IMG/VR virus record: IMGVR_UViG_3300025288_000016 | Span: 64,431-96,958 of that record | Length of the DNA stretch: 32,528 nt | Strand: one strand, 5' to 3' | From: a virus | Taxonomy: Duplodnaviria > Heunggongvirae > Uroviricota > Caudoviricetes > Crassvirales | Shown here: positions 1 to 27,048 of the stretch, one piece after another | How positions within the stretch are numbered: the stretch's first letter is position 1 | Layout: each line of letters opens with the position of its first letter | Notes under the pieces: model-generated | What the model was told of the DNA's origin: nothing | Database searches by the model: none | Seen by the model: only the letters and a program-made list of their open reading frames with translations | Position numbers and translations under genes: made by a program

Positions 1-1586
1 TGTAATATTGGGTTAAATTCACTAATAGGTTCATTTTTAATATCTTCAAGCATTTGTTTGTAAGATTCAGCATGTCTATCTATTGTAGCATCAGAAACAT
101 TAGCTCTTTTTTCTCCTCTTTCTATTTGTAATTTTATTCTTTGTTTAGCTAATTCAGGGTTTAACTCCATTAATTTATATTGAATATTAGCATTAGGAAT
201 TTCCTTTTTAATGGCTTCAATAAAAGGTAATCTTTTTTTTTTAGTTAAATTAGTAGTATCAAATACAACTTGTTTACCTTGTTTAATTGCAGTTACAGCT
301 CTTTTAGCTGCTTCTTCATAAATTTCTTTATCTTTAGATTTATTATTTATATCCCCTGTAAATTCTACTCTCATAGTATCAGGTTCTATAACTACTAAAT
401 TTTCTTGGGGTAAAGATTTTATAAATGTAGATTTACCACTACCACTTATACCAATAGGTAGTATTACATTAGGTTTTTCTAAAATCTGTGAATTATTATC
501 TTGATTTACAAACTCTTTAAATCCATCTATATCTGACTCAGAACCTAATATGTGTATTTGTTCTGGTTCAAATACTCCTATAGTATCTCCATGTTGGGAC
601 TCTATTTTATTATTTAACTCTTTTTGTTTTATAATATCATTTTCAATCAATTCTTTTGTAGATAATGTTTCTAAACTTTTAGCATCAAAAATATCTTTTA
701 AAATAAAGCCATCTTTATTTTTTAAATCTAGTTTTTGAACATCTGTAAATTTATTCTTTCTTTTTAATCCAAATCCTTCATCTTCTAAATTTTGTTCTAG
801 TACTTTAGGATTTTTTAAATTTAATACTACTTTAACTACATTACCATAAGTTTTTGCACTTTGAATAGACGAAGTAAAATAGAAAGCCTTGGGTTGTCTA
901 TAATCATTTTTATTATTATTAATAGTAGATTTTCCTATACTTTCTTTACTAAATATATCTTTTACAGTTCCACCATGATAAACAATATCTTTCACTTTAC
1001 TATCAGGAAATATAGTATCTAAGTATTGAGAATATTGCTGAGGTGTACCTATTTTAGCTAATTTAGGATTAGAATTAAATAATTCTTCTACATCTTTGGT
1101 ATTAGTAGAAGATGCTTTATCTGTAACTGAATTTAAAATTAATTGTTTTTGTTCTTTAGGTATTTGGAGTTCTGTTAAAATTCTATCTAAAGACCAATTA
1201 TTCTTTTTCCCTTTAGTAAAAGTTTGTTCACCTTTAGTAGAAGATAGTATATCTATAGCTTTTAAGGTATAATTTACATTATTATATTGTATAGGTGTAA
1301 TCTTATATTCATCTACAGCTATTTGTAATATATCAAATAATTTATTATTAGGTTCAGCTCTAAGTATATATCTATAACTACCATCCAAATTTTTAACATA
1401 TTTAGATTGTGTTCTAAATAATTGTTCATTATTAGGAGATGTTATATTATATTTTTCAGAAGCTAACAATGTTAAAGCTTCATTTAATTCATTAAATTTA
1501 TTTAAATCTTTAACAACTCTAGCATCTCCTAAAGCACCTTGTTCTTTAAGATATTCTAATGATTTTATTTCTATTTTACAACTCAT
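1..1586 (-). CDS. Polyvalent cargo protein (partial, >=528 aa): N-terminal region, ART-PolyVal-like ADP-ribosyltransferase fold, AAA_33/PNK-like P-loop kinase
   Basis: Manual translation from ATG at 1586 (MSCKIEIK...) has no stop before base 1. ART-like motifs: IVYHG (972-980), AFYFTSS..AKTYG, VVLNLKNP, DGFI, VFEPEQIHILG. Kinase motifs: GISGSGKST (426-452), EPDTMR, VVFDTTNL...R. Absent from the ORF track. Confidence 0.85.
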   Translation of the reverse strand, partial: MSCKIEIKSLEYLKEQGALGDARVVKDLNKFNELNEALTLLASEKYNITSPNNEQLFRTQSKYVKNLDGSYRYILRAEPNNKLFDILQIAVDEYKITPIQYNNVNYTLKAIDILSSTKGEQTFTKGKKNNWSLDRILTELQIPKEQKQLILNSVTDKASSTNTKDVEELFNSNPKLAKIGTPQQYSQYLDTIFPDSKVKDIVYHGGTVKDIFSKESIGKSTINNNKNDYRQPKAFYFTSSIQSAKTYGNVVKVVLNLKNPKVLEQNLEDEGFGLKRKNKFTDVQKLDLKNKDGFILKDIFDAKSLETLSTKELIENDIIKQKELNNKIESQHGDTIGVFEPEQIHILGSESDIDGFKEFVNQDNNSQILEKPNVILPIGISGSGKSTFIKSLPQENLVVIEPDTMRVEFTGDINNKSKDKEIYEEAAKRAVTAIKQGKQVVFDTTNLTKKKRLPFIEAIKKEIPNANIQYKLMELNPELAKQRIKLQIERGEKRANVSDATIDRHAESYKQMLEDIKNEPISEFNPIL

Positions 1587-1596
1587 TTTTTATTTA

Positions 1597-2094
1597 TTAA
1601 TCTAATAATGTTTCTCCTATATAATTATCAATTATTAACATATCATTACTTAATGCTAATATATCTAAATTAGTAATAGCTTTTCCTATTTCTTCTTGTT
1701 GTTCTTTACAATATTTTAAAGCTAAACTATATAATATATGATTATTTAATTTTAAAGCTTCTGAAGCAAGTTCTTCACATTCTTTAGTAATAAGTAGTTC
1801 ATATTCTAATGTTGCTTCAAATACATCTTGTAATGTATTTAATTCAATAACTGGAGAGCTTAATGGCATTAGAGTAGGTGTAATACCATAATCTAATAAA
1901 AAAGATTTAGCCCAGTCAGAATGATTATTTTCTTCATTAGCATATATTTTATATAATTTTGAAGTATTTAAATATCCATTATCATTTAACCATAAAGACA
2001 TTTGTTCGTATAATCTAGAAGACTCTTCTTCTTTTTTAATACGATATTCTAAAATATCAATTACTTTTTTATCAAGTAATACTGTTTTTTTCAT
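1597..2094 (-). CDS. Ferritin (non-haem, FtnA-like)
   Basis: 165 aa. Ferroxidase-centre pattern: EEESSRLY, EENNH, LEYELLIT, EQQEE. Confidence 0.85.
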   Translation of the reverse strand: MKKTVLLDKKVIDILEYRIKKEEESSRLYEQMSLWLNDNGYLNTSKLYKIYANEENNHSDWAKSFLLDYGITPTLMPLSSPVIELNTLQDVFEATLEYELLITKECEELASEALKLNNHILYSLALKYCKEQQEEIGKAITNLDILALSNDMLIIDNYIGETLLD

Positions 2095-2117
2095 TATATT
2101 TATTATTAATTATTTTT

Positions 2118-5100
2118 TTAACATGGATTTGTAAAATCAAAACCTATATTTTTTAATATATGTTTACCATTTCCTAATTTACTATTAGTATTTAAAGTTT
2201 TAGATAATTCAGCTGGTATATCTTTTAATCTTGTGATATATGATGGTAAAACTTTTCTAGAATTTAAATCTAAAATAGTCCATCCTTGTCTTTTAACAGT
2301 ATATTTATTAATACCTTCAGAATTTTTTTCTGTATTAAAACCTAAATTAAAATTAGTAGCAACAAATTTAACATTAGGTTGATTTTTTATTTCAATTGGA
2401 TATGCTTCTAATTCTATATCAATATCAGTTATAGGATGTTTATATTTAAATATTTCTTTTTTCTGAATTACTTTTATATCTTCTTCTTTGATATTTAAAG
2501 AATCATTTTCTACAAAAGTACTATTATTTTCTGAATTATCCAAATTTTCAATTGGTTCATTTATAACTTGTTTAGTTATAGTAGAATTTTCATTATTAGT
2601 AACTACCATATTACTGTTATATTCATTTATAATTGTATTATCTTTTAATATAGAAAGATATACTTCACTATTTATAGAAGAAGGATTAATTCTATTTTTA
2701 GGAAATATACTTAAAAAGTTTTTACCATTATTATGACCTAAAGAATATTCAACTATTTTATTACCTTTATTATCTTTATATCCTAATAAACTAGTTCTTA
2801 AATAATAAGCTTTATCTTTTTTAGTTCCTACAAGTTTGTAATAATAAGTATAAGGTTCTTCCATTTCTTTTTCAAATATAATTTTTGTTAAATATGGAAG
2901 TTTATCTCCTTTTTTAATATCAGATAAATAACCTGTTTGGTAATTATCACCTTTAGAAATAGGATTTATTTGACTTATAAAAGTTCTAATAGTAGTAGTA
3001 TTATCATCATAATTATTTCTATGAAATTGGTCAATAAAATTATTATCAATAAAGTTATTATAATCAAAAGTAATTTCTTTTAAATAACTATTAAATCTAT
3101 TTTTATTAAACCATTCATAAGGTATATATTTATGAAATTGATTTATATTATTATTAAAACCTGATATTAGATATGAATATTTAACTAATTTTTCAGCAAA
3201 TTTGGGGTGTGAATCAAATAAATCTTTCCATGAATCTGTTAATTCATTTTGATAAGATACAGATTTTCTAACACTAGGTAAAGAGATAAATGAATACCCA
3301 TCTAAAGAACTAGATTTAATATATAATTCATTAATAATAGTATTATTTTTAAGTTCACTTTTTATTTCCTTTAATTCGCTAGGTAGATTTTTAATTAAAT
3401 CTAATTTTTCTTCACTAGTTGTTTGTAAAGCTGGAAAACTAGATAATATATAAGAGTAATAAGTCTTTTCTAATTTATCAGCTAATTCACTATTTTGAAG
3501 TTTCTGACCATATAAACCATCAGAAATAACATTAAATGTAGATATAGTTGTATTATTAGCACTAAAAAAATATTTAGGATTAGCTTTCATAATACTATAT
3601 GGAAAATTTAATCCATTTTTAATTACAATATTTTGATGAGTGTCTATATTTTTTCTATGTAATTTAGAAGTAAATCCTTGTAATGAATTTTTTTTAGACT
3701 CATTATTTCTAATATTTCTAATTTTATTAATAGCTATAATTAAAGAGTTTATATTTTTACCTTTACCTTCTACATCTATTTTACTAGCACTAACATTAGC
3801 AGATAATTTTTTAGCATCTTTTATCCATTCTTCAAATTTTTTAATAACTGATAATTGAATATCTATATTAGAATCAGTATTTTTTATTTCATTTCTTAAT
3901 TCTTTTAAACTTATATCACTAAAATTTCTAGGTATTACTTCAAATATACTTTCATAAACATTAACAAATTCTTCTTTTAAATTTTTAAGTTCTTCAACTA
4001 ATTTTGGATTATTTTTTAAATCACTAGATTTTAATTTAAATGTAGTTAAAAATTTTCTAGAAATATCTCTAAATAAATTATCTTTACTAGTATTATAAGC
4101 TATTAAAGATTCTTCAGATTTACCAAGAGGAAAGTTACCAATTTGTTTAATCTGATTAATATTAATTAATTTATTAAAAAGTTTTCTTTTATTTATAGTA
4201 ATGTTATTAATAACTATTTTTTCATCAGAAATATTTTCAGAAGCTTTTCTTAATTTAAATTTTTCATTAATTCTACTAGTATCATTAATACTTTTAGATT
4301 CTTGATTAGTTTTAAATTTAACATAATTTTTAAGAATAGGTTGTGATAAAAAAGCATTAACTTTAAAAGGATGTACTCCTGCCCTAATAAGCATAAATCC
4401 TAAATCATTAGTTTGAGTAACCCAGTTACCTTTAACAATATAAGAGTCTTTAGCAATATCAACAAAACCATTAACAAGCATCATCATAGATACATTTAAC
4501 TTAATTTTATTAAATTTCTGAGCTTTCTCTAATGTAATATATTCATCATTATTTAAACCTTCATTAAAAGACTCTATATATTCTTTTAATTCTTTAGAAT
4601 TTAATTCTTCAGACCATTCTTCATCAAATTTAGTACCAGAGCCATTATCATTACCCCATCCTAAAAAATGATTAAAATATAAATTACCCATTGAACCTCT
4701 TACAGAATCAACAAGTTGGTTAATATTTTGACCTAAACCAGCTTTACCTAATCTAAAGTCATTTTTTAATTCTAAATCACTAATAGCATCAAAAGACATT
4801 AAATCTTCTATGGGTTTATCTGGAAATAAATTTTTTATATCTTTTTCTATAAAATCTAAATCAATAGGATTCATTACATCAGGTAATACTTTTTCATTAG
4901 TTAATACCGCCTTATATGCTTTAATAAGTCTATTTTGTAAAGCTTTTTTAGATTGTTGATATAATGGATTAATTTCACCATTTTCATCTTTAGATAAATG
5001 AACATACTGTAATTTATCAGCTATTAATTTTTTGTCTAAATATTCATTATTAAAATCATTATAATATTCATTATTTAAATCATTATCTCCTAATAATATA

Positions 5101-8100
5101 TTATTTATAAATAAGTCATATATTTGTTCTCTATCTAATATATCAATATTTTCTCCAGATTTAGATAAAATACTTTTAATAACATTAAAACTTAATTGAC
5201 TATCTTTAATATATTGTTCAGCAAATAATTTATCTTTTTTATGAAATATTACATCATAAGAAGGTATCATTAAATACATCTTATCAATATCAAAGTCAGA
5301 ACCAGTTTTAGTAGTAATACCAGTATAAGCAATAACAGTATCACCCATCTCTTCTGGTAATATACCCATTACTTGTAATGCATCATTTGAAGGTAAACCT
5401 TGATTAGGAATTCTATATCCTATAATATTTTGTAATATTTCTTGGTCTATCTTACCACCTTCATATTTACCAGTTTCTTCATTTAACTCACCAAATAGTT
5501 CTTTAGAAGATAATTGTTTATAATTAGGTATATATTTAGCAATAAAAGAGCCTGATAAAAATATTCCTGCTGGAGATAAACTTTTTTTACCATTAACTTT
5601 TCTATAACTACCTAATTTATTTTCATCAAACCAAGGTGTAAATATCATATTTTTACCAATAGCATCTTCTTTAGAAAGACCATAATCAGCCATTTGTATA
5701 AATCCACCACCATTAGTTTGTATTTTAACTAATTCTTTATTAATAATAGAACTAAACACATTTTGAAACATTTGAAAAGCTCCAGGAATACCATAAGGAG
5801 ATAAACCAGCTTCTAATGCTTTAATAAAATTTGAGGGTACATCTTTTCTAGTTTTTAATTGGTCTATTAAAGAATTATATAAACTTTCTTCATTATTTAT
5901 TTTAAATGTATTTGGATTTATTCCAAATCTATTAATTATATTATTTTTACCTTTATCTGAAAGAGCTCCTACAATATTATTAATATAATCAATTAAATCT
6001 GTACCTTTTATAATACTATTATCTAATTCAAAATCTTCATTTAAATTAAATGCTAAACCTTGAAATATATTTTTTTGTATTTGAGAACCTATATCCGTAG
6101 ATTTTATACCTTTAGTTGGTAAATCTTGTTGTAATTTCCAATTAGAATTATCAAGTTTAATTTTATTTAAACTAAAATTATCAATTACATCACCATTTTC
6201 ATTATGAGTAGTTACTGGTATTGGAGAACCTACTTTAATACCATCTTGGGTTATTAGTTCATGTATTTGGTCATTATAAGGCATAGTATCACCATTAGCA
6301 TCTTTAGTCATTTTATTAAATAACTTCTCTAATCCAGTACCTTTAATTAAATTAGGTACTAATACAGCTTGAGAATACTTTAAAAATGTAGGTTCACCTT
6401 TTTCATTAATTCCAAAATATACACCTTTTAATGGTTGAGCTACTAATTTTAATTCTTCATTAGTAAAAGTAGGAGTAATTTCAAACATCTTATTATAAAC
6501 AGATTGTCTCTTAGAGTCCCATTTACCTAGTTTTTCTAAAATAAATTTCCAACGTTCTGGAGTTATCCAAGCTTGCGCATCTGTACTATTAATTTTATTA
6601 TTAGCATATTTTTGAATTATATCTTTTGGTAAATATTCACGCATTTTATCTAAATCTTGAGCACTAATTTCTACAGATTTAATAATAGAAACATTAAAAA
6701 ATCTTTCATTAGCTTTAGGGTTAAGCCTCATATATAAACCATCAGTATAACTAGCAGGTACTCTTTTTTTATAATCTGTAATATTTTTATAGTAAGCAAC
6801 ATCACCAGTAAACATTTTAGAATATTCTACTTGTGAAATAACACTATTAATAAATAAATCACCTGCTATTTGTAAAGGAGCTTTTTCTTTATTAGATTTA
6901 TTTACATACCAATTATAAATAGATTCATCTAAAGTTTTATTTACTCTTTCACCATTTTCATTTAATTCAAATATACTATTTTCATATAAAGAATTATAAG
7001 TATTTTTTATACCTTTTATTAGAAAATTATTAATTAATTGACTAATTTCATCTTCAATAATATCTAAATTATCATAAACAGGTTTTCCATCTATATCATA
7101 TAATATAATATCATTATTTTCTTTATCTTTAATATTTAAATTAGGTAAAGATATTATACCATTTTTAATTTTAATAGATAATGAAGGAAATAATTGTGAT
7201 TGTAATGCATTTTTAGAACCTAAATGATAATTTGGTAATAAATTTTCACCTAATTGAATCATTTCATATTCATAACGTATTCTATTATAATCAGATTTAA
7301 AATAATTATAAAATACTTTTGTTATATTTGAATCAATTACAGTTTTACCATTTTCATTTCTAGTATTGGCATATTTATTAAATATTCCTTGTCTATCATT
7401 TCCAAAATGAATTTGACGTTCTGTAGCTTTATCTGCTGCTAATGCAGTTTTATGATAAGTTTTACCACCTTTTCTAGAATTTAATACTTTATGTATATAA
7501 TCATTAAAAGAATCAGTATAAGATAATTCTTTATTATCTACAGCATTTACAGAATCTCCTTCTAATTGTACAGAATTAAATATATTACTTTCTATTTCAG
7601 ATAGTCTTTTTTTAGATTCAGCTAATCTTTCATTTTCATCTAAAATTTCAGAAGCTGTTAAATAATACATCCAGTCTGAACCTTTATTATATTCAGTAGA
7701 TAAAAAGAATTTATATAAAGAATTAGGGTCTTTTTTCCATCTTTCTATTCTTAAATCAATATAAGAAGGTAATGAATAAACCCATTTAGTCTTACCAGTA
7801 GTAAATACAGAAGCATCTGAGCCTTCAGACATATAAAACGCTTCAGCTTCAGACATTTGTCTAAAAATATTTTGATTACTAAAAAAATCTTCTTTAATAT
7901 CTTTATAGTTAATTAAACCAAAAGATATATCTGTAAAAGTTTTATTTAATTTATTAATTTTTTCATTAAGTGAAACTTCATTATAATTTAAATTATTAAT
8001 ATAATAATTAAATCCTTTTTCTGTAAATTCTACACCTAATTTATTTAATATTTCTTTTATATTATTTAAATGAGGTATTAAATCAAGTTCACTTTTAATA

Positions 8101-9323
8101 TTTTTTAAATCATTTCTAAAATTATCTAATTTATTATTAGTTTCTATATTTAAATTATTTATACCTACAGTAGTTAATTTCTTATTTAAAAAATTAAATT
8201 CCCATTGAGACATTAGTGCACCTTTTCTACTACCTACATCAGATAAATTTCTAATAATAGTATTTCTGCTACCATCTTTATTTGTAACTGTTTCACTACC
8301 TAAATAATTATTTTTATATAATGTAAAAGCTGAACTAAATTGATTTTTAAAATTATTATCATTACTTATTTTACCAGAACTTAATAAATTATGTAATTTA
8401 TTAAAATATGGTTTAACATTTGATAATTCTTTAATAATATCTAAATAAATATCAAAAATATCTTCTGTTTCTAAAGCAATTTGATTACTTAAAGCTTTAT
8501 TTAATGTATTATAAATATCATCAAAAGGTATAAATTCATATTCATCAAAATCATTTGTTTCTTCAGAAGTGATTAAAGATAAAAATAGTTTAATATTATT
8601 ATTTACATTATTTTTAGTACCTTTTAAAAAAGATTCTTGGCGCATTAATTCATCAGGAACTAATTCCTCACCTTCTCTAGCACCATCTTCATCTTCAGAA
8701 ATATCATCTTCTTTATAATTAATTTTTAAACTAGAAAAATAATCTTTAACTTCATTAACCCATTCATTTAAATATTGAGCAGATTGTTCTAATGCTATAC
8801 CTTTTACAAATATATCAGGATTTTCATTAGTTTGTAATTGATTAGATTTTGTTGTTATAAATTCTTTTAAAAAATCTCTAAGATGTTTACTACTTTTTTT
8901 AGTAAATTCTAAAGTTTCATAATTAAAATCTATATTAGAAATATAAAAATTAGATGCAGCAATTTTAGCAAATCTTTTAATATCATTTGTGTCAAATACA
9001 GACCTAATACCTTGGTCTTTATAAGGATAAAATATAGGTTCATTACTTTTATCTAGAAAATAATATTTATTTAATTTTTTATTAAAAAATAATTTAGGTT
9101 CATTGTTTTCATCTAATTTATCTTGAAAAAATTTAGTATCTTCAAAAGATTTTTCTTTAGTATTATGATAAGTTATATAATCACCAAATATTTTTATAAA
9201 TTCTGGTGTTCTAAAATAAGCTAATAATTTATCAGCTTCTTTTTCATCTTTAGTAATTTTAAATAACTCATTAAATAATAATGATGTTTCTTTATTTGTA
9301 TTTGATAATCTTATACAACTCAT
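2118..9323 (-). CDS. Virion-packaged RNA polymerase (phi14:2 gp66-like), about 2401 aa
   Basis: GSDFDIDK catalytic loop (DFDID at 5283-5297) preceded by GYRIPNQG; also KRV.....T and TDAQAWIT motifs. Start reassigned to the ATG at 9323 (MSCIRL), which forms an ATGA overlap with the upstream stop. Confidence 0.9.
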   Translation of the reverse strand: MSCIRLSNTNKETSLLFNELFKITKDEKEADKLLAYFRTPEFIKIFGDYITYHNTKEKSFEDTKFFQDKLDENNEPKLFFNKKLNKYYFLDKSNEPIFYPYKDQGIRSVFDTNDIKRFAKIAASNFYISNIDFNYETLEFTKKSSKHLRDFLKEFITTKSNQLQTNENPDIFVKGIALEQSAQYLNEWVNEVKDYFSSLKINYKEDDISEDEDGAREGEELVPDELMRQESFLKGTKNNVNNNIKLFLSLITSEETNDFDEYEFIPFDDIYNTLNKALSNQIALETEDIFDIYLDIIKELSNVKPYFNKLHNLLSSGKISNDNNFKNQFSSAFTLYKNNYLGSETVTNKDGSRNTIIRNLSDVGSRKGALMSQWEFNFLNKKLTTVGINNLNIETNNKLDNFRNDLKNIKSELDLIPHLNNIKEILNKLGVEFTEKGFNYYINNLNYNEVSLNEKINKLNKTFTDISFGLINYKDIKEDFFSNQNIFRQMSEAEAFYMSEGSDASVFTTGKTKWVYSLPSYIDLRIERWKKDPNSLYKFFLSTEYNKGSDWMYYLTASEILDENERLAESKKRLSEIESNIFNSVQLEGDSVNAVDNKELSYTDSFNDYIHKVLNSRKGGKTYHKTALAADKATERQIHFGNDRQGIFNKYANTRNENGKTVIDSNITKVFYNYFKSDYNRIRYEYEMIQLGENLLPNYHLGSKNALQSQLFPSLSIKIKNGIISLPNLNIKDKENNDIILYDIDGKPVYDNLDIIEDEISQLINNFLIKGIKNTYNSLYENSIFELNENGERVNKTLDESIYNWYVNKSNKEKAPLQIAGDLFINSVISQVEYSKMFTGDVAYYKNITDYKKRVPASYTDGLYMRLNPKANERFFNVSIIKSVEISAQDLDKMREYLPKDIIQKYANNKINSTDAQAWITPERWKFILEKLGKWDSKRQSVYNKMFEITPTFTNEELKLVAQPLKGVYFGINEKGEPTFLKYSQAVLVPNLIKGTGLEKLFNKMTKDANGDTMPYNDQIHELITQDGIKVGSPIPVTTHNENGDVIDNFSLNKIKLDNSNWKLQQDLPTKGIKSTDIGSQIQKNIFQGLAFNLNEDFELDNSIIKGTDLIDYINNIVGALSDKGKNNIINRFGINPNTFKINNEESLYNSLIDQLKTRKDVPSNFIKALEAGLSPYGIPGAFQMFQNVFSSIINKELVKIQTNGGGFIQMADYGLSKEDAIGKNMIFTPWFDENKLGSYRKVNGKKSLSPAGIFLSGSFIAKYIPNYKQLSSKELFGELNEETGKYEGGKIDQEILQNIIGYRIPNQGLPSNDALQVMGILPEEMGDTVIAYTGITTKTGSDFDIDKMYLMIPSYDVIFHKKDKLFAEQYIKDSQLSFNVIKSILSKSGENIDILDREQIYDLFINNILLGDNDLNNEYYNDFNNEYLDKKLIADKLQYVHLSKDENGEINPLYQQSKKALQNRLIKAYKAVLTNEKVLPDVMNPIDLDFIEKDIKNLFPDKPIEDLMSFDAISDLELKNDFRLGKAGLGQNINQLVDSVRGSMGNLYFNHFLGWGNDNGSGTKFDEEWSEELNSKELKEYIESFNEGLNNDEYITLEKAQKFNKIKLNVSMMMLVNGFVDIAKDSYIVKGNWVTQTNDLGFMLIRAGVHPFKVNAFLSQPILKNYVKFKTNQESKSINDTSRINEKFKLRKASENISDEKIVINNITINKRKLFNKLININQIKQIGNFPLGKSEESLIAYNTSKDNLFRDISRKFLTTFKLKSSDLKNNPKLVEELKNLKEEFVNVYESIFEVIPRNFSDISLKELRNEIKNTDSNIDIQLSVIKKFEEWIKDAKKLSANVSASKIDVEGKGKNINSLIIAINKIRNIRNNESKKNSLQGFTSKLHRKNIDTHQNIVIKNGLNFPYSIMKANPKYFFSANNTTISTFNVISDGLYGQKLQNSELADKLEKTYYSYILSSFPALQTTSEEKLDLIKNLPSELKEIKSELKNNTIINELYIKSSSLDGYSFISLPSVRKSVSYQNELTDSWKDLFDSHPKFAEKLVKYSYLISGFNNNINQFHKYIPYEWFNKNRFNSYLKEITFDYNNFIDNNFIDQFHRNNYDDNTTTIRTFISQINPISKGDNYQTGYLSDIKKGDKLPYLTKIIFEKEMEEPYTYYYKLVGTKKDKAYYLRTSLLGYKDNKGNKIVEYSLGHNNGKNFLSIFPKNRINPSSINSEVYLSILKDNTIINEYNSNMVVTNNENSTITKQVINEPIENLDNSENNSTFVENDSLNIKEEDIKVIQKKEIFKYKHPITDIDIELEAYPIEIKNQPNVKFVATNFNLGFNTEKNSEGINKYTVKRQGWTILDLNSRKVLPSYITRLKDIPAELSKTLNTNSKLGNGKHILKNIGFDFTNPC

Positions 9324-12300
9324 AATCCACATTTAGTTTTAATCTGTTCTTCACTTATATCTTTATTTTTTAATAAATCAAAAACAGCTTTTACTTTATC
9401 TTGTATTTTATTATATTTTTTAGCAACAATTTGTATTTCTTTAATATGAACTACATAATTTTTAGACAAAGCAATATATATTTTAGAAGCTTGTTCGTCT
9501 GTTAATTTAGAAAATTCAGTTTCTTCTTTTAAAGAAGGTTTTTCAATTTCTTCTTTTTTAGATGATACAATAGTTGGTGGTCCAAATAATTCAGATAGAG
9601 CATCTATTTGTGTTGTATCTGTAATTTCTATACCTTTAAATTTACCTGATTTTTCTTTAGGAGTTTCAGTTTTTATAATAGTTTCAACTTTAGGTTTAGC
9701 TACTTTAGTTTTATATATTTTAATTAAATCTTCATTAAATTCAGATAATTTACCTTTAATTTTAACTTGGTCTTTACCTAAATATATTGTAGTTTTACCT
9801 TGAAAAGTAGGTTCACCTATTTTAGCATTAGTATTTAAAGTTCCACTATTAATTAAATATTCTAAATAAGCTCTATTTTCATCAATATTTAAATTATTAT
9901 TATCAGTTTCTTTTTTTCTAAATTTAATTTGATGTCTTTTATTTTGAGTTAAAGTATAAATAAATAAATCTTTACTTTCAGGAGTTTCAAACTGTTCTTT
10001 AGTTAATTCTTTATCAAATAATAGTAATGTATTTTTAATAGTAAATTTAACTTGAGTTTTAGGATTTTTACTTCCTTCCCAAACTAAAAATTCTATTAAA
10101 TCTTTAATAGTAATATCATTAATATTTTTATTTAATAAATCTAGTACATCTTTAAAATTAACTTGAATTTTATTCCATAATTCTTTATCTAAAGATGATA
10201 AAGTATTAGTTTCTTCACCATTAAATCTATTTTTATATAATTCATATAATAGTTCTGCTTTATCTTTTGTTAATTTCTTGATATTTAATTTTAAAGGAAA
10301 ATCTAATCCAGCAGCAGTATGAATTTTAAGATATACCTCACCTTTAGCTAATCTCCTATTAACAGGAAATATATCATCATTAATATTAATTAATGTACCA
10401 AAATTATCTACAAAATAAATATCTTCTTTTTTAATTTTAGAAATATCACCTGAGAACTCATATAAGCCAGTTATTAGGTTCTCTACAACATTATCTTCTA
10501 TTTGTAGTGTTCCATTACCTTGTCCTACAATTGGAACGCTTATATCTTCTATTTTAGTACCTTTAGCTAATTCTTTAATTATAGTACTTCTAAGTTCTTT
10601 AGATGTTTTATTAAATATTTTATTATAACCTTCTTTATCAGATTTAGTTTCTAATGGTGCAAAAATATCATCTGTTAATTTAATATTTAAAGGTAAATGA
10701 TTTATTAAAAATTCTATATCTGTAAAATCTTTATTATTAAATAATTCTAAAGCTTTCTTTTGATTATCTGAAAAACCTTGTTTATTAACTTCGATACCTT
10801 TTTCTTCATTAGTTTTATCTCTAGGAGTTCTTTCAAATTCTAAAGCTGCATCAGATATAAAAGATAATTTTTTACCTTTATTATTATCTGTTATAATAAT
10901 TCTAGGTTGATTTTTTTCTTCATATATCTCAGTAGAAATATCTTCTTGAACCTCTTCAATAATATCTTCAATTGGTCCTTCTGTTACAAAATTAGAAGTA
11001 TTTATAGCAGCAGTAAATGTAGTGGGTTTAAATGCAAATTCTTGACCATCTTCTGTTTTAAAAGAAATATATCCTTTTTTAATTGCAGTAATTTCAGCAG
11101 ATAATCCTCTTCTATTTTCTGGAATACCTTTAACATCAGGTATAGTAACAGTTTCACCTACATTAAAATTATTAGATAAATAATTTAAAGCTTCTTCATT
11201 TAATCTATCTTTTTCTTGTTCTTCTAAAGTAAGTTTTGCATTTTTTTCTGAAACTTTTTTAGAATTTTCACTAATTTTAGATTGGATTTCTTTACGTTTA
11301 CTATTAAGAGTTTCTTTTATACTTTCAGAAGCTATATTTTCTGGTATATTAATATCATCTAATTCATCTAAAGTTTTAGCTAAATTTATTTTTTCTAATA
11401 CATCTGTTGTTTCTTTTTCAATAGAATCTTGTTCTTTTCTAATTTTATTAGCTTCTTTTACTTCTTTACTAAAAGCTTCTTTTACAGATTTGTTATCCCA
11501 AAATGCATTATTAAGTTTATCAATATCTCTTAATTTATTGTTTAAAGAACCAATTTCATTATAAATCTTACCAATTCTATTATCTATAGTTGATAAATCT
11601 CTTACTTTAGCAGGATTATTTTCTACATCAATATAATTAATACCTCTTTCTTCTAATAAAGTATTAAAAGTAGCCTTTTTTTCTTGTAATTTTTGTTGAT
11701 TATAATATTGATTAGATTTATTATTTAAATAGATATCAGTTAATTTATTATAAAATGCAACTTTGTCATTAGCATTAGCTTCAGGATTGTTTAAATCAAA
11801 TATAGATGGAGCAAAACTTTGAAATAAAGTATTATCTTTTTCTAATTTTTTAGCTTGTTCTAGTATATTATCAATAAATTTTTTATTATCAGTTTTATCA
11901 GCTTTATTTAAAGATGCTAATTCTGAAGAAGTTTCTAAATGTTGTCTTAAAACATCTATTCCTAATTGTTCATTAACAATAAAAGGTTTAATTAAATCTG
12001 TAAATACTTTTTGTTTAATATCACGAACTAATTCAACATCACCAGATTCAGATGCTAAATCATATAATCCTGACAAATATTCTAATTGATTACTGCTTTT
12101 AATTTTTTCTGCTAAAGCTTTAAAATTAACTTTAGGTACTTTTTTATATTCACCATTTTCTAATATTTCATCAAATATTACTTGCCCATCTTCATTTTTT
12201 TCATAAGTATCTTTGTGAAATATATTATAAGCATCATCTAATACTTCATTACCAGCAGTTATTAATTGATTTGTAATATTTTTTTCTTTAGTTGAACTTT

Positions 12301-13579
12301 TAAAATCTTGATATGAAGTCATACCTCCACCAAATAGTGTACCTAAAAACATAGCTTTTTGTCCATCTGTAGAAGAAAACATTTCAGCATAAGCTTTAGG
12401 TATTTCACCAACAGAATCTAAAAATCCTGCATCTGGATTATTAACAAAAAATTGTTCTGAAGCAGATTGCATACCTTCTTCCCATAAACCTTCAGTTACA
12501 CTACCTTTTATAAATTGTCCAATAGCTTGACCAGCTTTTTGACGTAATGTAGGATTATTTAAAGCTTCTAATCTTCCTGTACCAGCTATAACACCAACAG
12601 CTTTATTACGAGGTTTTCCCCATAACATTTTAGACATCATAGCATTAGGACCAATTAATATAGCAGCATTAGCTAAAAATACATTTCTACCTATTTCAGA
12701 AGATTTTTTTAATTCATTATTATATTGTTCTTGAGTAATTTCATTATTAGCTAATTTTTGTTGTAATTCTTGTTCATAAGAATCCATTGCACCTTTAGCT
12801 TCTGCACCTGCTTCAAAAAGTGTATTAGCCATTGTACCAGTAAATAAATCTGCATTTTTAGCAGAAGTAGGGGTTAATGGTGAATCTATTCTTTTTAGTT
12901 GTTTAAGTATATCATCTGCATATTTAGTTTTAGCAGCCATTTGAGCATACTTATTAGTACCAAGTATTTTAGCACCAATACCAAATTTATTTATAGCTGC
13001 ACCTGGAGCTAACATAGATACTATATAACCTATACCATCAGCACCTTCTGTAGCCCAAAAATCTATAGCTGTAATATTATCCCATAAATTACCTTCACTT
13101 ACTGCTTTTTTTACATATACAGGTAAGGCTTCACTTTTAATATATTCTTCTGCATCACCTATAGCTCTTATCCAACTATTATTAAAAGCGGTTTGTATAA
13201 AATCTGTATTATCTTCACCAGAAATAATATCTCCAATTTGACCAAAACCACCAAAAACTACACCACCTATTACTCCAGGCATTTTAGCAACTTCAGACAC
13301 AACTTTAGTGCCTATTCTTAATATTCCTGCACCTGCTTTAGTTATCCAAGGTTGTCTTTGAGCTCTATTTTCACTAATAGATTCTCGAAGATTACCATCT
13401 TCATTTACAGTAACATTTGGAAAAAAAGCTTTATCGTACCTACTATCACCAAAATCAAAATCACCTCTAGCTACTTCTGTAGAAGGTGTATTAGCATATC
13501 TATATTTTTCTTTTACAGGTTCTGTAAAATTATCATAAATATCAAATTTATCATCATAGTTTAATTCTTCTTCATCCAT
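9320..13579 (-). CDS. Large virion cargo/ejection protein (1419 aa)
   Basis: Lies between cargo genes and the RNAP. Gly/Ala-rich hydrophobic segments in the N-terminal third (GVIGGVVFGGFG, VFLANAAILIG, MFLGTLFGGG), then coiled-coil-like sequence. TAATG overlap upstream, ATGA overlap downstream. Confidence 0.65.
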   Translation of the reverse strand: MDEEELNYDDKFDIYDNFTEPVKEKYRYANTPSTEVARGDFDFGDSRYDKAFFPNVTVNEDGNLRESISENRAQRQPWITKAGAGILRIGTKVVSEVAKMPGVIGGVVFGGFGQIGDIISGEDNTDFIQTAFNNSWIRAIGDAEEYIKSEALPVYVKKAVSEGNLWDNITAIDFWATEGADGIGYIVSMLAPGAAINKFGIGAKILGTNKYAQMAAKTKYADDILKQLKRIDSPLTPTSAKNADLFTGTMANTLFEAGAEAKGAMDSYEQELQQKLANNEITQEQYNNELKKSSEIGRNVFLANAAILIGPNAMMSKMLWGKPRNKAVGVIAGTGRLEALNNPTLRQKAGQAIGQFIKGSVTEGLWEEGMQSASEQFFVNNPDAGFLDSVGEIPKAYAEMFSSTDGQKAMFLGTLFGGGMTSYQDFKSSTKEKNITNQLITAGNEVLDDAYNIFHKDTYEKNEDGQVIFDEILENGEYKKVPKVNFKALAEKIKSSNQLEYLSGLYDLASESGDVELVRDIKQKVFTDLIKPFIVNEQLGIDVLRQHLETSSELASLNKADKTDNKKFIDNILEQAKKLEKDNTLFQSFAPSIFDLNNPEANANDKVAFYNKLTDIYLNNKSNQYYNQQKLQEKKATFNTLLEERGINYIDVENNPAKVRDLSTIDNRIGKIYNEIGSLNNKLRDIDKLNNAFWDNKSVKEAFSKEVKEANKIRKEQDSIEKETTDVLEKINLAKTLDELDDINIPENIASESIKETLNSKRKEIQSKISENSKKVSEKNAKLTLEEQEKDRLNEEALNYLSNNFNVGETVTIPDVKGIPENRRGLSAEITAIKKGYISFKTEDGQEFAFKPTTFTAAINTSNFVTEGPIEDIIEEVQEDISTEIYEEKNQPRIIITDNNKGKKLSFISDAALEFERTPRDKTNEEKGIEVNKQGFSDNQKKALELFNNKDFTDIEFLINHLPLNIKLTDDIFAPLETKSDKEGYNKIFNKTSKELRSTIIKELAKGTKIEDISVPIVGQGNGTLQIEDNVVENLITGLYEFSGDISKIKKEDIYFVDNFGTLININDDIFPVNRRLAKGEVYLKIHTAAGLDFPLKLNIKKLTKDKAELLYELYKNRFNGEETNTLSSLDKELWNKIQVNFKDVLDLLNKNINDITIKDLIEFLVWEGSKNPKTQVKFTIKNTLLLFDKELTKEQFETPESKDLFIYTLTQNKRHQIKFRKKETDNNNLNIDENRAYLEYLINSGTLNTNAKIGEPTFQGKTTIYLGKDQVKIKGKLSEFNEDLIKIYKTKVAKPKVETIIKTETPKEKSGKFKGIEITDTTQIDALSELFGPPTIVSSKKEEIEKPSLKEETEFSKLTDEQASKIYIALSKNYVVHIKEIQIVAKKYNKIQDKVKAVFDLLKNKDISEEQIKTKCGL

Positions 13580-15462
13580 TATTTTTTCTTTTTAATATTA
13601 GTAGAAGTTGCACCATGAGCTCTTAAAAATCTAGATTGTAAGTCTTTTTCTGTAACAGGAATAGGATTAATATAACCTCCTTCTGGAGATTCAGTATTTA
13701 TAATATAAGAATGTTTTTCACCATTTATCATAATAGGTGTAGAAAGATAAACTACTACTTTATCTTTACTTTTTGGTATTTTATAAGGAATATCTGGAAA
13801 TTTATTAGTATTTATAAATACATCATTAAAATCTTTATCTGCTTGAAATTCTGGTGAATTTATTTCAGTTCCAGACCTACTAACTAATATATTTTTAATG
13901 TCACCATTATCATTTCTATATTGCATTCTTATAGGTGATACAAATAAATTTTTATTTTCAATATTACCGTATTTATCAGTCAAAAAGTTTTTAGGACTAT
14001 AATAACCTGAATACTTTAAATTATCAAAATTCTTTTTAATATCAGAAGGTAAATCATCATAAGAAATAACTTTATTAGAACCTTCTATAAAATATTTTCT
14101 TTCTTTAGGATTAGATTGAACTAATTCAGCTATTTTTTTAGGAGATGACCCATCTACACCTACACTTCTATCTCCATAAGATTTAGCAAAATCATCTGTA
14201 ATAATGAAATCTTGTCTTATTAATTGCTTATTTTTATTAAAATATTCTTGAACTAAACTAGCAGCTTCTGGAGAATATTTATTAAATCCTTTAGCTTCGG
14301 GAGTATTTACTATAATATTATCATATATTCTGTTATAATCTTCTAATTCTTTTGGATTAAGTTGATTTTGTACAGTAGCTATATATTCTTCTTTAGAAGT
14401 GCTTCCAGCAAAAACTTGACCACTTGCATTTAAACCTGGTCCTGTTCTAACAAATTTTGGTCCACCTCCTGCTGTTAATACTTTCCCTATATTATTAAGT
14501 TTATTTAATATATTAGTACTATATATTTCTACAGATGTAGCTTCAGCATACTCACCATTAGGTTTACCTTCTTCAGGATAATCTAAATCACCTTTACTAG
14601 GAGCTACATATTGATATTTTTCACCTGTTGTATCTAAACTTTTAGTTTCTTTTTGTAATCCTAAACCAGCATTAATAGTATTAGAAATAGTTTGTTTATC
14701 TAAACCTTGCCAAGTTGCACTTTGAGCACCTAAACCTTTATCATTAATCCATTTTTCTTCAAGAAATTTTCTTGCTACTTCTATATTAGGAACATTAGTA
14801 GTTTCTACTAATTGACCATCTTTAGTTACAAGCATCATACCACCTGTTTCTGTTGGTTCAAATCTATAACCTTTTTCATTCATTTTAGTTATAGTTTCAG
14901 AATTCATCATCTTACCTACTTCAAATATATCTTTTTGTAAATCTTGATAAGCAGCTGGCATTGGTGCTTGAAAATTTTCTATTTTACCAGTTTCATTAAA
15001 TTTTTTAATATAAAGTTCTTCAGCTTCTTGTAATTTTTTTTGTATTTCATTTGGTCCATAACCAATTTTAGTAGCATTAGCTAATACTTCAGCTTTACCT
15101 TGTTCTAATGATTTCTTAGCTGCTTGTACTTTACCTAATACACCAGTAGGTCCAACACTTGTTTGATAATCTTTATTAAGTCTTAATATATCACTTTTAG
15201 TAGTATTATTAAATCCTTCTCTAGCTAATAATTCAGAACGTTTATTTAATTCATCATATAATCTTTGTTGTTCAGCTTTAGCTACTTCACTATGAATATC
15301 TGAAGGGTCTATTTGAGCTAGTTGTGTTTCAATAGCACCAATACTTTCAGACATAGCATCATGCTGTTGACGTTTATAAGCAGGAACTAACATTAACTCC
15401 TGTAAAGTCATAGGATTAAATCTAGATTGAGAAGTCTTAGTGTATCTATTTACTTGTGCCAT
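13579..15462 (-). CDS. Putative virion cargo protein (627 aa)
   Basis: Long ORF coupled to both neighbours. N-terminus (RFNPMTLQELMLVP) resembles crAss-like cargo-region proteins as I recall them. No catalytic motif recognised. Confidence 0.55.
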   Translation of the reverse strand: MAQVNRYTKTSQSRFNPMTLQELMLVPAYKRQQHDAMSESIGAIETQLAQIDPSDIHSEVAKAEQQRLYDELNKRSELLAREGFNNTTKSDILRLNKDYQTSVGPTGVLGKVQAAKKSLEQGKAEVLANATKIGYGPNEIQKKLQEAEELYIKKFNETGKIENFQAPMPAAYQDLQKDIFEVGKMMNSETITKMNEKGYRFEPTETGGMMLVTKDGQLVETTNVPNIEVARKFLEEKWINDKGLGAQSATWQGLDKQTISNTINAGLGLQKETKSLDTTGEKYQYVAPSKGDLDYPEEGKPNGEYAEATSVEIYSTNILNKLNNIGKVLTAGGGPKFVRTGPGLNASGQVFAGSTSKEEYIATVQNQLNPKELEDYNRIYDNIIVNTPEAKGFNKYSPEAASLVQEYFNKNKQLIRQDFIITDDFAKSYGDRSVGVDGSSPKKIAELVQSNPKERKYFIEGSNKVISYDDLPSDIKKNFDNLKYSGYYSPKNFLTDKYGNIENKNLFVSPIRMQYRNDNGDIKNILVSRSGTEINSPEFQADKDFNDVFINTNKFPDIPYKIPKSKDKVVVYLSTPIMINGEKHSYIINTESPEGGYINPIPVTEKDLQSRFLRAHGATSTNIKKKK

Positions 15463-17158
15463 TTGAACTTTCTTTTACTTTTTTATCCATATCCTCTTTT
15501 GTAATTTGTTCACCTTTTTCATTAACAAAATACTTACCATTCCAAGAATATCCAAACATATTTTTAACCATTTTTTTATAGGATTCTTCTTTACCTATAT
15601 TACCAATATCTTCAAATAATGCACTTCTTTGAGCTGATTTAGCTGTATTATAAGCTCCTTCATCTTGTGCTTTTCTTTCTAAATATCTTTCATTTAATTG
15701 AGCATTAGTTGTATCTTTTTGAAGATTACTTTGAAATTGAAATTTATTTTCATTTCTATTAATATCTTCACCTTTCATATAAGCATCACTAATGGCTTTA
15801 GTTTTATTTAAATTAGCAGCAAGTAAATTAGTACTTAACGCACCTAAATTACCACCTGAAGATTCAGAAAGAGCTTTATTAACATTATTTTGATTAACTT
15901 GGTTAACTATTTGTTGTTCATCAAATAATTGTGGTTTATATACATTATCTAATCTAGTACCTCTTTCAGTAATAGGTTTTTCTATTTTATTAGTTAAATT
16001 ATCTAAAAGTGGAGCATATCTTAATATACTACCATAATTATTTTTTAAAAATTCACCTGTTTTATTTAAAGCTTTTCCAGTAAAAGTTTGTTCAGCATTA
16101 GAGTGTTTTCCAATACCAAAAGGTTGAAAATTAATACCTCCTCCATCAGTATATTCATTTGTATAACCTCCATTGCTAAAATTATCTGTATAGCCTGAAT
16201 CATTATATTTAGCTATATTAGCTTTAGGATTTAAACTTGTTATATGATTTAATTGTTCTTTGTATAATTCTGCATTAGCAGGATTTTTTTTAGTATTTTT
16301 TAAAGTATGTCTACCATCTTTATTTGTTTTTATATCAAAATAATCTAAATCTTTATATTTACCTAAATTTAAATTATGATTTGGTTTAGACGCTCTAATA
16401 GTATCTATAGTTGCAAAAATTCCACCTTCATTATGAGGGTCATAGTTAGCTGCATTATTACTAAATATACCTTCTCCTAAATCTTGAGATTGTAATTTAT
16501 CATTTAAATCAGATAATTCTTGAGAATTTAAATTTCTTTGTATTTTTTTGTCTTTTTTTGGGTCAGTAGTATAACCACCTATTTCATATGTATTAGGTCT
16601 ATAATTATTTGATTGTTTAAAATCAAAGTTCATATTAGCTTTTGCTGCATCTTTTTTAGCTTTATTACCACCAATTAATCCAGCAATACTACCTATCACA
16701 GCACCACCAGCAGCTCCCCAAGGACCTAATGCACTACCAGCTTTAGCTCCTGACATAGCTCCTGACATAGCTCCTCCAGCAATATTTACATCAGGTGCAG
16801 CAGTTCTACCACTAGTATCTATTCCACTTTTACTAAACGCCATATTACCTAATTCTAAAGCTCCTCCTGCTAAACCTAAAGCTCCAGAGACACCAATACC
16901 ACCATCTTCAGTACCAGTTTCTTCTAAATCCATACCAAACATACCTTGGTTTTGGTCTTGTGGATTAGATATTTCCATATTTTGTTTCAAATACTCTTGA
17001 GCTTGAGATAATCTTTCTAATAATTCTTGTTTAGTCTCATTAGATACTTTATCATTCCTACCTTTAAATTTAGCTTCTATAGCTTTACTAGCATCTGCAA
17101 AGGATTTACCTTTTGTGTAGGATGGTAAATTAAATTCCTTTATTAAATCTATATTCAT
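15446..17158 (-). CDS. Cargo protein 1-like, C-terminal part, with glycine-zipper membrane segments (570 aa)
   Basis: GIGVSGALGLAGGALELG and GSALGPWGAAGGAVIGSIAGLIGG segments. Position downstream of the muzzle gene as in crAss001 gp45. Confidence 0.6.
   Translation of the reverse strand: MNIDLIKEFNLPSYTKGKSFADASKAIEAKFKGRNDKVSNETKQELLERLSQAQEYLKQNMEISNPQDQNQGMFGMDLEETGTEDGGIGVSGALGLAGGALELGNMAFSKSGIDTSGRTAAPDVNIAGGAMSGAMSGAKAGSALGPWGAAGGAVIGSIAGLIGGNKAKKDAAKANMNFDFKQSNNYRPNTYEIGGYTTDPKKDKKIQRNLNSQELSDLNDKLQSQDLGEGIFSNNAANYDPHNEGGIFATIDTIRASKPNHNLNLGKYKDLDYFDIKTNKDGRHTLKNTKKNPANAELYKEQLNHITSLNPKANIAKYNDSGYTDNFSNGGYTNEYTDGGGINFQPFGIGKHSNAEQTFTGKALNKTGEFLKNNYGSILRYAPLLDNLTNKIEKPITERGTRLDNVYKPQLFDEQQIVNQVNQNNVNKALSESSGGNLGALSTNLLAANLNKTKAISDAYMKGEDINRNENKFQFQSNLQKDTTNAQLNERYLERKAQDEGAYNTAKSAQRSALFEDIGNIGKEESYKKMVKNMFGYSWNGKYFVNEKGEQITKEDMDKKVKESSNGTSK
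16744..16775. repeat. 12-nt tandem repeat (tagctcctgaca x2.7) encoding GAMS-GAMS-GA
   Basis: Exact DNA repeat read directly from the sequence. Confidence 0.9.
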
Positions 17159-18048
17159 AATCTTAATCTATTTGAAAAAATATATTTACCACCTTTTAAT
17201 TCAAAGGAAGTCTCATTTTCTTCTACTGTATTTTGTTTTCCGTTGTTACCTATTCCTTGAGGTATTCCGCCTAAAGGATTTTGTTCATGAGTTCCACCCC
17301 CATTAAACTCATTTAAATTTTTATCTATATTATTAGAATTAATAATTCCACCATTTACTTTCATATTTGATTTACCTACCATAGATAATATATTTTTCAT
17401 ATAATCATTATTAGTTGAAACAGAAGTATTATCTGTAACTATTTCAGACTCAAATTTTTCATCCTTAATAGGGGCTGTCCAATTAGTTTGATTAAAAGTT
17501 TTAATTTCTGGAGTCCTATTAAAAGTCATATATTCACTATTATTTTTTGAATTAAATTTTTTTTTATAATCTTCAATAGAAGAATTAAAGGAATCTATTC
17601 TTTTTGCTCTATCTTTATCTGCTCCTGCCCAATGATAATTAGCCCAAAAATCTGTTATAGATTCTTCACCTTTTACAACTTTAGCTAAATCTGCTTTAGG
17701 ATGTTTACGCATATTACCTAAAAATAAAATATCCTGTTGTTCAGAACTTAATGTACTAGCATCTAAACTATCAAATTGAGTTGCTTTTTGTAACCATTCT
17801 GGAACAGGAATATTATTATCATTATAATATTTTTTAGTTCTTTTAGCAGCTGTTATTGCACCAGCATTTTTACCAACTTCAAATTGGTATTTACCTCTAC
17901 CAGGACCACCACCTTGTTGAACTATTTCAGGGTCTAATGTACCTGCAGATTCATGATATGCAATAGTATCAAGAAGGTTAAGGTAGTCTTTTGGACTACC
18001 ACCCTTCTCTTCAATTAATTTTTTTATGAGTTTTTCCCTTTCATTCAT
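17155..18048 (-). CDS. Lysozyme-like (muralytic) domain fused to cargo protein 1 N-terminal motif (297 aa)
   Basis: IAYHES (candidate catalytic Glu), GPGRGKYQF, LSSEQQDILF. C-terminus GGTHEQNPLGGIPQG...VEENET...YIFSNRL is a motif I associate with crAss-like cargo 1. Confidence 0.65.
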   Translation of the reverse strand: MNEREKLIKKLIEEKGGSPKDYLNLLDTIAYHESAGTLDPEIVQQGGGPGRGKYQFEVGKNAGAITAAKRTKKYYNDNNIPVPEWLQKATQFDSLDASTLSSEQQDILFLGNMRKHPKADLAKVVKGEESITDFWANYHWAGADKDRAKRIDSFNSSIEDYKKKFNSKNNSEYMTFNRTPEIKTFNQTNWTAPIKDEKFESEIVTDNTSVSTNNDYMKNILSMVGKSNMKVNGGIINSNNIDKNLNEFNGGGTHEQNPLGGIPQGIGNNGKQNTVEENETSFELKGGKYIFSNRLRL

Positions 18049-26661: not shown

Positions 26662-27045
26662 TTAACAAGGTGAGCCTGTACTATTTTTATATATTATTTT
26701 TAAGTCTGTTTCTCCAGATGAAGTATTAACTCCAGTTATATTTAATACTATTACTTCTGTTAATACAGTATTTCCTAAATCTATATTTAAACTAGTAGCC
26801 CCAGTATGTATAAAAGTATATGTTCCTGTTGTACTAATAGTAAAATATCCAAATCCTGTATTTAATTGAATATTATAAATATTAGGTAATACATTTATTG
26901 AAAAAGTTAATTGTATTGTATCTCCTATTTCTGCATTTATATCCATTGCGCTTGAAGTATAACAAGTAAAACTTGTTACAACTTCACTTCCAATTAATGG
27001 TTCTATAGCAGTAATACTATTAATATTTAGTGTAAAAGTTGCCAT
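26662..27045 (-). CDS. Hypothetical beta-rich protein (possible virion decoration)
   Basis: 127 aa, Thr/Ile-rich. N-terminus MATFTL resembles the upstream gene's MAIFTL. Confidence 0.4.
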   Translation of the reverse strand: MATFTLNINSITAIEPLIGSEVVTSFTCYTSSAMDINAEIGDTIQLTFSINVLPNIYNIQLNTGFGYFTISTTGTYTFIHTGATSLNIDLGNTVLTEVIVLNITGVNTSSGETDLKIIYKNSTGSPC

Positions 27046-27048
27046 ATA

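Follow-up and report, generated by a model that had tools for sequence, protein, structure and literature searches.

Facing terminal cysteines at the split junctions of crassvirus cargo proteins suggest an end-to-end link between separately encoded giants

In N4, in T7 and in the crassviruses, the phages found in greatest abundance in the human gut, it is an open question how megadalton amounts of folded protein pass through a podophage tail channel 25-50 Å wide. The closest described systems to the locus reported here are the cargo genes of two cultured crassviruses, gp67-gp66-gp65 of phi14:2 and gp47-gp50-gp49 of crAss001, which follow the muzzle gene and the small cargo genes. We analysed a stretch of 32,528 nucleotides (the window), the final 32.5 kb of a 96,958-bp crassvirus genome, 24.8% G+C (IMG/VR record IMGVR_UViG_3300025288_000016, positions 64,431 to 96,958), in which the large genes are all encoded on the minus strand. 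Its cargo block, by which we mean six open reading frames (ORFs), includes homologous genes in the same order, for a 1,419-residue protein (A), a virion RNA polymerase (RNAP, or R) and a polyvalent protein (B). In these proteins cysteine follows a simple rule: it stands at both ends that face a split junction, it is absent from the start and the end of the chain, and almost none is found internally.

The locus shares with both cultured phages the DFDxD motif of the RNAP, a zincin motif in B and an identical layout of terminal cysteines. It differs from them in the low identity of the RNAP (about 30% to phi14:2 and 23% to crAss001), in an inserted ferritin gene and in a larger B with ART-PolyVal and AAA_33 domains. 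Protein A was recognised by BLAST as a homologue of phi14:2 gp67 and crAss001 gp47, and searches of the Pfam and PHROG families gave no match for A or for the RNAP. With phmmer, the RNAP matches PDB entry 6VR4, which is phi14:2 gp66, with an E-value of 1.6e-215 over residues 15-1680; in tblastn it is 30.6% identical to the phi14:2 protein over 89% of its length. The catalytic motif reads DFDID at residue 1343 and is found at residue 1361 in phi14:2 and 1483 in crAss001. Judged by this homology, the 2,401-residue protein is a crAss-type virion RNA polymerase. Presence of its homologues in the virion comes from mass spectrometry for phi14:2 (record annotation) and crAss001 (PMC10172136) only, and by homology with those proteins the window RNAP would be packaged and ejected as well. 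B runs off the window; in the genome it is complete at 1,909 residues (L099:88-5817, minus strand) and contains an ART-PolyVal domain, a kinase-like AAA_33 domain and an HExxH zincin motif at residue 709. The muzzle gene is the marker at which the cargo block starts, and it also provides an internal control for cysteine content. Gene order and marker domains follow the crassvirus layout of muzzle, cargo protein 1, cargo protein 2, A, R and B.

With B taken complete, the cargo block contains four cysteines in 7,223 residues: none in the ORFs of 297, 570 and 627 residues, one in A, two in the RNAP and one in B. All four lie within three residues of an end that faces the neighboring protein of the chain (Table 1). 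The cysteine content of the rest of the genome (1.09%) predicts 79 and position-specific base composition predicts 96; the Poisson probability of four or fewer is about 1e-28, and that of all four landing by chance in the terminal triplets that face a junction, four in number, is about 8e-12. Neighboring virion genes encode internal cysteines, six in the muzzle protein and eight, five and nine in proteins of 228, 311 and 750 residues, respectively. An earlier note on this DNA had placed four cysteines at these codons, had counted no others in the six ORFs and had denied a genome-wide bias. Read directly, the codons lie exactly at the coordinates it gave, it had missed no internal cysteine and the complete 1,909-residue B adds none, and the internal cysteines of the muzzle and neighboring virion proteins agree with its view that the bias is local. 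The longest ORF of the RNAP begins three codons before the MSC start (MWIMSC), at an ATG at 9330-9332 which exists because the AAA-TGT lysine and cysteine codons of A create it. The second ATG (9321-9323), in an ATGA overlap with the stop codon of A, gives the MSC start that is common to the relatives.

The IMG/VR collection was scanned with the window RNAP as query, which gave 80 loci at 21-53% identity. Segments corresponding to A, R and B were assigned by BLAST against three reference sets, clustering at 85% identity resulted in 58 clusters, and the RNAP core served to build a tree of 72 lineages (clusters and GenBank genomes). A facing pair of cysteines, scored in a strict positional range, is present at 40 of the 43 split A/R junctions; the exceptions are L048, with its cysteine 18 residues from the end, and two crAss001-like loci (L075 and L081) in which gene A is non-adjacent and only the R side is visible. 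The split R/B junctions carry the pair in 56 of 57 cases, and the remaining one (L050) has an over-extended ORF, with MVC at residues 11-13 and a start that is probably miscalled. Cysteine was found at none of the chain-start N-termini and at none of the true chain-end C-termini, about 60 of each. As a baseline, 103 other ORFs of the same loci include two with an N-terminal and three with a C-terminal cysteine.

The surveyed proteins contain 344 cysteines in 380,982 residues; 198 of these are terminal, and the internal frequency is 0.038%. No internal cysteine at all is present in 40 of the 57 uncultured lineages, in phi14:2 and in the window. The gut genomes have up to 0.2-2.4 internal cysteines per 1,000 residues, which would fit a weaker oxidative pressure in presumably anoxic habitats. 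In 90 of 96 cases the C-terminal cysteine is one of the last four residues (the last residue in 26, the second-last in 36, the third-last in 16 and the fourth-last in 12). Of 102 N-terminal cysteines, 59 are at residue 3, 18 at residue 4, 16 at residue 5 and nine at residue 6 or 7. Lysine flanks the C-terminal cysteine, occupying position -2 in 41% of cases, as compared with a background of 9.4%; by general thiol chemistry, a lysine beside a cysteine would favor the reactive thiolate.

The cysteine pattern covaries exactly with the split or fused architecture of the genes. Fused junctions, of which there are 21 of the A-R and 12 of the R-B type, lack the terminal pair, no R-B fusion ends in cysteine, and six fully fused A-R-B proteins of 4,536-5,639 residues have no cysteine at all. 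After fusion the flanking cysteines are not retained internally, and the other junction keeps its pair. The two cysteines flanking a junction are therefore probably partners, because both vanish together while the other pair remains, and this joint loss supports the order of pairing proposed in the earlier note (C-terminus of A with N-terminus of the RNAP, C-terminus of the RNAP with N-terminus of B). On either side of the R/B junction, the fused forms L020 and L022 can be aligned with their split sister lineages. This junction is a poorly conserved linker of about 80-100 residues, which in split forms reads ..C-stop followed by M.SC.. and in fused forms is free of cysteine. On the RNAP tree the architecture changes at least six times at A/R and at least four times at R/B, and every independent contrast is concordant.

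The same rule is found in cultured and named relatives. In phi14:2, the sole cysteine of gp67 (1,797 residues) is its last residue (..NTIC-stop), gp66 has cysteines at residue 3 (MAC..) and at position -2 (..QECK-stop), and the sole cysteine of gp65 is residue 3 (MSC..). In crAss001, the sole cysteine of gp47 is at position -3 (..RCNS-stop) and that of gp49 is residue 5 (MAKKC..); gp50 has one at residue 5 (MSKRC..), one at position -9 and one internal, and gene 47 is on the opposite strand to genes 50 and 49. In nine genomes of Suoliviridae, A is fused to the RNAP as an A-R giant of about 4,300-4,950 residues, which carries a C-terminal cysteine at positions -2 to -4 in eight of the nine and at -11 in cr10_1; B has an N-terminal cysteine at residues 3-6 in all eight genomes from which a B gene was retrieved. 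In Intestiviridae (p-crAssphage, for which BK010471.1 was used, cr110_1, cr8_1 and crAss002), a zincin-bearing protein in the place of A has a C-terminal cysteine at position -2, and the R-B giant, in which B is fused to the RNAP, has a cysteine at residues 3-5 and none at its C-terminus. Conservation of the terminal cysteines in orthologues, which had been proposed as a check, thus extends through 72 lineages of Crassvirales, down to about 21-30% identity.

A pattern of this kind could be an artefact of chance, of AT-rich composition or of overlapping start codons. In the window the cysteine codon of A does overlap an ATG (AAATGTGG), and several unrelated genes of the same genome end in cysteine at an overlap with the next gene. 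The comparative sequence data already refute such an origin, to which we give practically no credence: base composition predicts 96 cysteines where four are observed, and the rule is seen in 58 clusters at 21-53% identity. It also persists when genes are inserted or separated, with three genes between R and B in L011, gaps of 0.5-1.2 kb in L014, L018 and L025, and junction spacers of 78-170 nucleotides in Intestiviridae. The overlap reading is rejected because of these loci and because the phi14:2 overlap is a single base and the crAss001 partner genes are on opposite strands. Likewise, the rule is independent of gene adjacency, since the ferritin gene intervenes between the RNAP and B genes in the window.

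Known terminal cysteine motifs do not fit these positions. A split intein consists of an N-terminal part of about 100 residues and a C-terminal part of about 35, for which cysteines 1-4 residues from the C-terminus and at residues 3-7 of the N-terminus leave no room; Pfam and PHROG searches of the window proteins gave no match to an intein family. A lipobox requires a signal peptide and L-x-x-C at about residues 15-25, and the cysteines here are at residues 3-7 after the start methionine with no hydrophobic signal sequence. The cysteine of a CaaX box is fixed fourth from the end, and the distance observed varies from one to four.

Scarcity of cysteine is also found in ejection proteins of other podophages. 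N4 gp50 (3,500 residues), gp51 and gp52 have no cysteine in 4,294 residues, and T7 gp15 and gp16 have none in 2,065; replication and structural proteins of the same two phages contain 0.5-1.4%. The ejected T7 proteins gp14 and gp6.7 each have a single cysteine at residue 2 (MCW.. and MCF..). Like crassvirus cargo, the N4 and T7 ejection proteins are large, stored in the capsid, thought to unfold through the tail and free of cysteine; unlike it, they have no facing terminal pairs, and the single-chain virion RNAP of N4 belongs to another RNAP family. By analogy, the cysteine-free N4 and T7 proteins support a general constraint on ejected proteins.

The best explanation, which we hold to be fairly probable, is that the facing terminal cysteines of A, R and B join, most likely by a disulfide, into a single threadable chain. 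The comparative sequence evidence lends support to the core proposal of the earlier note, namely that the C-terminus of one cargo protein is linked to the N-terminus of the next. A, R and B would be synthesised in a reducing cytoplasm and packaged, their thiols would oxidise once the particle is extracellular, and they would later cross a narrow tail largely unfolded. Cross-links between internal cysteines could then cause branching or knotting and so make threading impossible, and selection would purge these cysteines, retaining one thiol at each terminus made by a gene split. The C-terminal cysteine of one protein would pair with the N-terminal cysteine of the next, most likely as a disulfide inside the assembled virion. 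The product, A-S-S-R-S-S-B, would be a continuous thread of about 5,700 residues, topologically like the single polyprotein of related phages. A would start the chain, having no N-terminal cysteine, and B would end it, having no C-terminal one. After entry, these links would be broken in the reducing cytoplasm of the host, setting three separate proteins free. The cysteine purge seems more likely to stem from oxidation within the extracellular virion, together with threadability, than from exposure to the periplasm. In crAss001 particles, the tail and the portal vertex hold many structural disulfides (PMC10172136).

We infer, beyond the pattern itself, that the two cysteines bond, that the bond is a disulfide formed at the stage described above, and that it would serve ejection as a single thread, co-packaging at 1:1:1, or both. 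In its widest form the proposal is that separately encoded giants are joined in the virion into a linear thread of about 5,000-6,000 residues. In this form terminal disulfides would be reducible stand-ins for peptide bonds, A would begin a single threading event, and the host cytoplasm would cut the thread into a working RNAP and its partners. The loss of other cysteines would reflect the same constraint, shared with N4 and T7. Towards this whole sequence of events we lean only slightly.

Several points weigh against an end-to-end disulfide. The putative bond is a prediction from sequence. Gut crassviruses inhabit anoxia, and the reducing cytoplasm in which the proteins are made would put off any disulfide until assembly or lysis is over, when the ends would need to be close already; for the disulfide-bearing crAss001 particles, the text consulted (PMC10172136) describes no anaerobic handling. 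The tails of A and R at their C-termini are mutually alike, as are those of R and B at their N-termini, and tails so generic do not account for specific pairing, with mixed products such as A-B dimers or R circles conceivable. The phi14:2 preprint suggests that fused polyproteins are cleaved before packaging; if so, the link would be dispensable in those lineages. The cargo-protein-1 gene is split without cysteines, and the device is therefore not used at every split of the cargo block. Independent contrasts on the tree are few (5-6 at one junction and 3-4 at the other), and for neither junction alone does the sign test reach p < 0.05 (p 0.06-0.25). In L039 the RNAP is split once more, with cysteine on one side only, L061 and L076 are irregular, and the cysteine lies farther from the end in L048 (-18) and crAss001 gp50 (-9). 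A complex prediction for residues 1200-1419 of A with residues 1-220 of the RNAP had a score of 0.00 and poor predicted local distance difference test (pLDDT) values for both pieces, and counts neither for nor against the link.

Covariation with the split or fused architecture says that the cysteines act jointly and is silent on chemistry, so the facing thiols might instead be bridged by a shared metal ion (e.g. Zn, Fe or Cu) or joined in some other way than by a disulfide, with the same chain logic. The earlier note, too, had named metal binding, and a packaging tag, as alternatives. A bridge of this type could form in a reducing cytoplasm and in anoxic habitats, and the ferritin gene between R and B in the window phage might seem to suit it. 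However, the closest relatives (L004 and L005) have no ferritin gene, and each terminus offers a single conserved cysteine with no conserved histidine, aspartate or second cysteine nearby for coordination; we regard a metal bridge as unlikely. It is also conceivable that the cysteines are independent sites for acylation, other modification, virion attachment or packaging, gained at termini that splits create, as the generic rather than pair-specific tails and the lone residue-2 cysteines of T7 gp14 and gp6.7, with no obvious C-terminal partner, would allow. A generic tag would be expected on the N-terminus of A and the C-terminus of B too, where it is seen in 0 of about 60 each; moreover, the cysteines are gained and lost always as a facing pair, and their varying positions (-1 to -4 and 3 to 7) are unlike the fixed lipobox and CaaX motifs. 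This makes independent sites quite improbable.

Since R alone has two cysteines, the numbers in the three-gene architecture would balance equally if R closed on itself, through its residue 3 and its C-terminal cysteine, and A paired with B. An A-R fusion should then keep the cysteines of the A C-terminus and the R N-terminus, yet both are lost, and likewise in R-B fusions; a circular protein is also not threadable through a tail channel, and we find this topology very hard to credit. Enzymatic ligation or processing, in which the thiols would lead to a peptide bond by thioester transpeptidation or to cleavage after recognition by the zincin protease of B, appears similarly far-fetched. The HExxH motif of B is conserved and the fused polyproteins show that a peptide-bonded form works, but there is no intein, sortase or ligase-like sequence beside the termini, the cysteines at 1-4 residues from the ends give no space for split-intein halves, and zincins have no known thiol requirement.

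The end-to-end disulfide can be set beside two known arrangements. Fused crassvirus polyproteins (e.g. p-crAssphage gp44, Suoliviridae giants of about 4,500 residues and IMG/VR proteins of up to 5,639 residues) have the same domains, order and scarcity of cysteine as the window proteins; unlike them, they have a peptide bond in place of the proposed cysteine-cysteine link, and the junction cysteines are absent. The proposed linked chain would imitate these polyproteins, and the cleavage idea of the phi14:2 preprint runs in the opposite direction. In AB-type two-chain toxins, an interchain disulfide holds the chains together during membrane translocation, and reduction in the cytosol frees the active part. 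The toxin chains arise by nicking of one polypeptide, with the disulfide internal to the fold, unlike the proposed crassvirus link, in which flexible tails would connect the ends of three separate gene products, one after another. By analogy, the reducible disulfide of translocated two-chain toxins would be the nearest counterpart of the terminal-cysteine rule. Cysteines of the cargo proteins are not mentioned in the phi14:2 RNAP preprint or in the structural atlas of crAss001 (PMC10172136), a 2026 paper on N4 ejection proteins does not discuss those of N4, and a full-text literature search gave nothing relevant on cysteine in crassvirus cargo or in N4 and T7 ejection proteins. The gene block itself is of a known kind and ordinary for it; the terminal-cysteine rule is a feature of this kind that had not been described.

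The rule is readable from the genes themselves, and it turns the question of ejection into an experimental one in the cultured phages phi14:2 and crAss001. It provides a signature for spotting ejected proteins, helps to mend start-codon calls in crassvirus annotation, and would account for the frequent and apparently neutral fusion and fission of giant cargo genes. If the proposed bond is real, the terminal link is a natural reducible protein-protein connector, and ejected proteins must never cross-link other than end to end.

In three giant genes an internal M-S/V-C follows 10-32 codons after the annotated or longest-ORF start: cr110_1 gp40 (L090:11310-11360), crAss002 gp33 (L096:11297-11400) and L050 (15837-15870). 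The internal start fits the family-wide N-terminus, and in L050 it directly follows the upstream stop; the annotated or longest-ORF starts of these three giants are probably miscalled. Under translation table 11, cargo genes of L055-L064 and L076 and of five GenBank genomes (cr125_1, cr60_1, cr4_1, cr114_1 and cr56_1; L085-L087, L091 and L093) contain 5-78 in-frame stops each. When TAG is read as sense in L055-L064 and L076, long ORFs result that obey the cysteine rule, except in L076, where the start of B is not placeable. In the five GenBank genomes, all in-frame stops were read as Q, whichever the codon. In L039 (7397-19391) the RNAP is in parts of 1,943 and 871 residues around an inserted ORF of 1,161 residues, with a junction cysteine (MGC) on the second part only. 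A 253-residue ORF between R and B in L049 (14350-15111) has a C-terminus, ..IKRIKNCN-stop, that copies ..QTRIKECN-stop of the RNAP.

Table 1. Features of the cargo block in the window and the codons of its four cysteines
Feature	Position	Strand	Details
Muzzle protein, 1327 aa	18119..22102	-	6 internal Cys; crAss_MUZ, E 1.6e-213
Cys-free cargo protein 1, N-terminal half, 297 aa	17155..18048	-	residues 233-296 = crAss_CARG1 positions 4-65
Cys-free cargo protein 1, C-terminal half, 570 aa	15446..17158	-	residues 14-64 = crAss_CARG1 positions 75-126
Cys-free cargo protein, 627 aa	13579..15462	-	position equivalent to crAss001 gp46 (synteny)
Protein A, 1419 aa, starter of the proposed chain	9320..13579	-	sole Cys = residue 1417 (..KTKCGL-stop)
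A Cys 1417	9329-9331	-	TGT; ..KTKCGL-stop
Virion RNA polymerase R (by homology), 2401 aa from MSC start, middle link of the proposed chain	2118..9323	-	PDB 6VR4 homology
RNAP Cys 3 (from MSC start)	9315-9317	-	TGT; MSC
RNAP last residue Cys	2121-2123	-	TGT; ..FTNPC-stop
Ferritin-like gene, 165 aa	1597..2094	-	2 internal Cys; PF00210, E 7e-14
Protein B, N-terminal 528 aa, terminator of the proposed chain	3..1586	-	sole Cys = residue 3 (MSCKIEIK)
B Cys 3	1578-1580	-	TGT; MSC

The ferritin-like gene, although placed between the RNAP and B genes, is not a member of the proposed chain, and it is absent from the closest relatives L004 and L005. An annotated thioredoxin gene is found a few kb from the RNAP block in p-crAssphage (L094:26248-26526) and cr8_1 (L095:27281-27550).

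The crAss_CARG1 domain is split over the 297- and 570-residue ORFs (15446-18048, minus strand), which overlap by ATGA. The two-ORF layout of cargo protein 1 also occurs in L004 and L024, and crAss001 gp45 is a single protein; the arrangement is either a true split inside the domain or recoding. Smaller proteins of the cargo-protein-1 type in several lineages have a lone C-x7-8-C pair (e.g. at 369/378 or 390/398), which the window versions lack; carriers include phi14:2 g069 (L001:28984-30246), crAss001 gp45 (L002:37335-39863), L028, L031, L039 and L043.

Elsewhere in the window (26662-27786, minus strand), adjacent genes of 245 and 127 residues have near-equal N-termini (MAIFTLTTNS and MATFTLNINS). 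Both match the phi14:2 virion protein g080, and the end of the short copy, ..GSPC-stop, resembles ..TNPC-stop of the RNAP.

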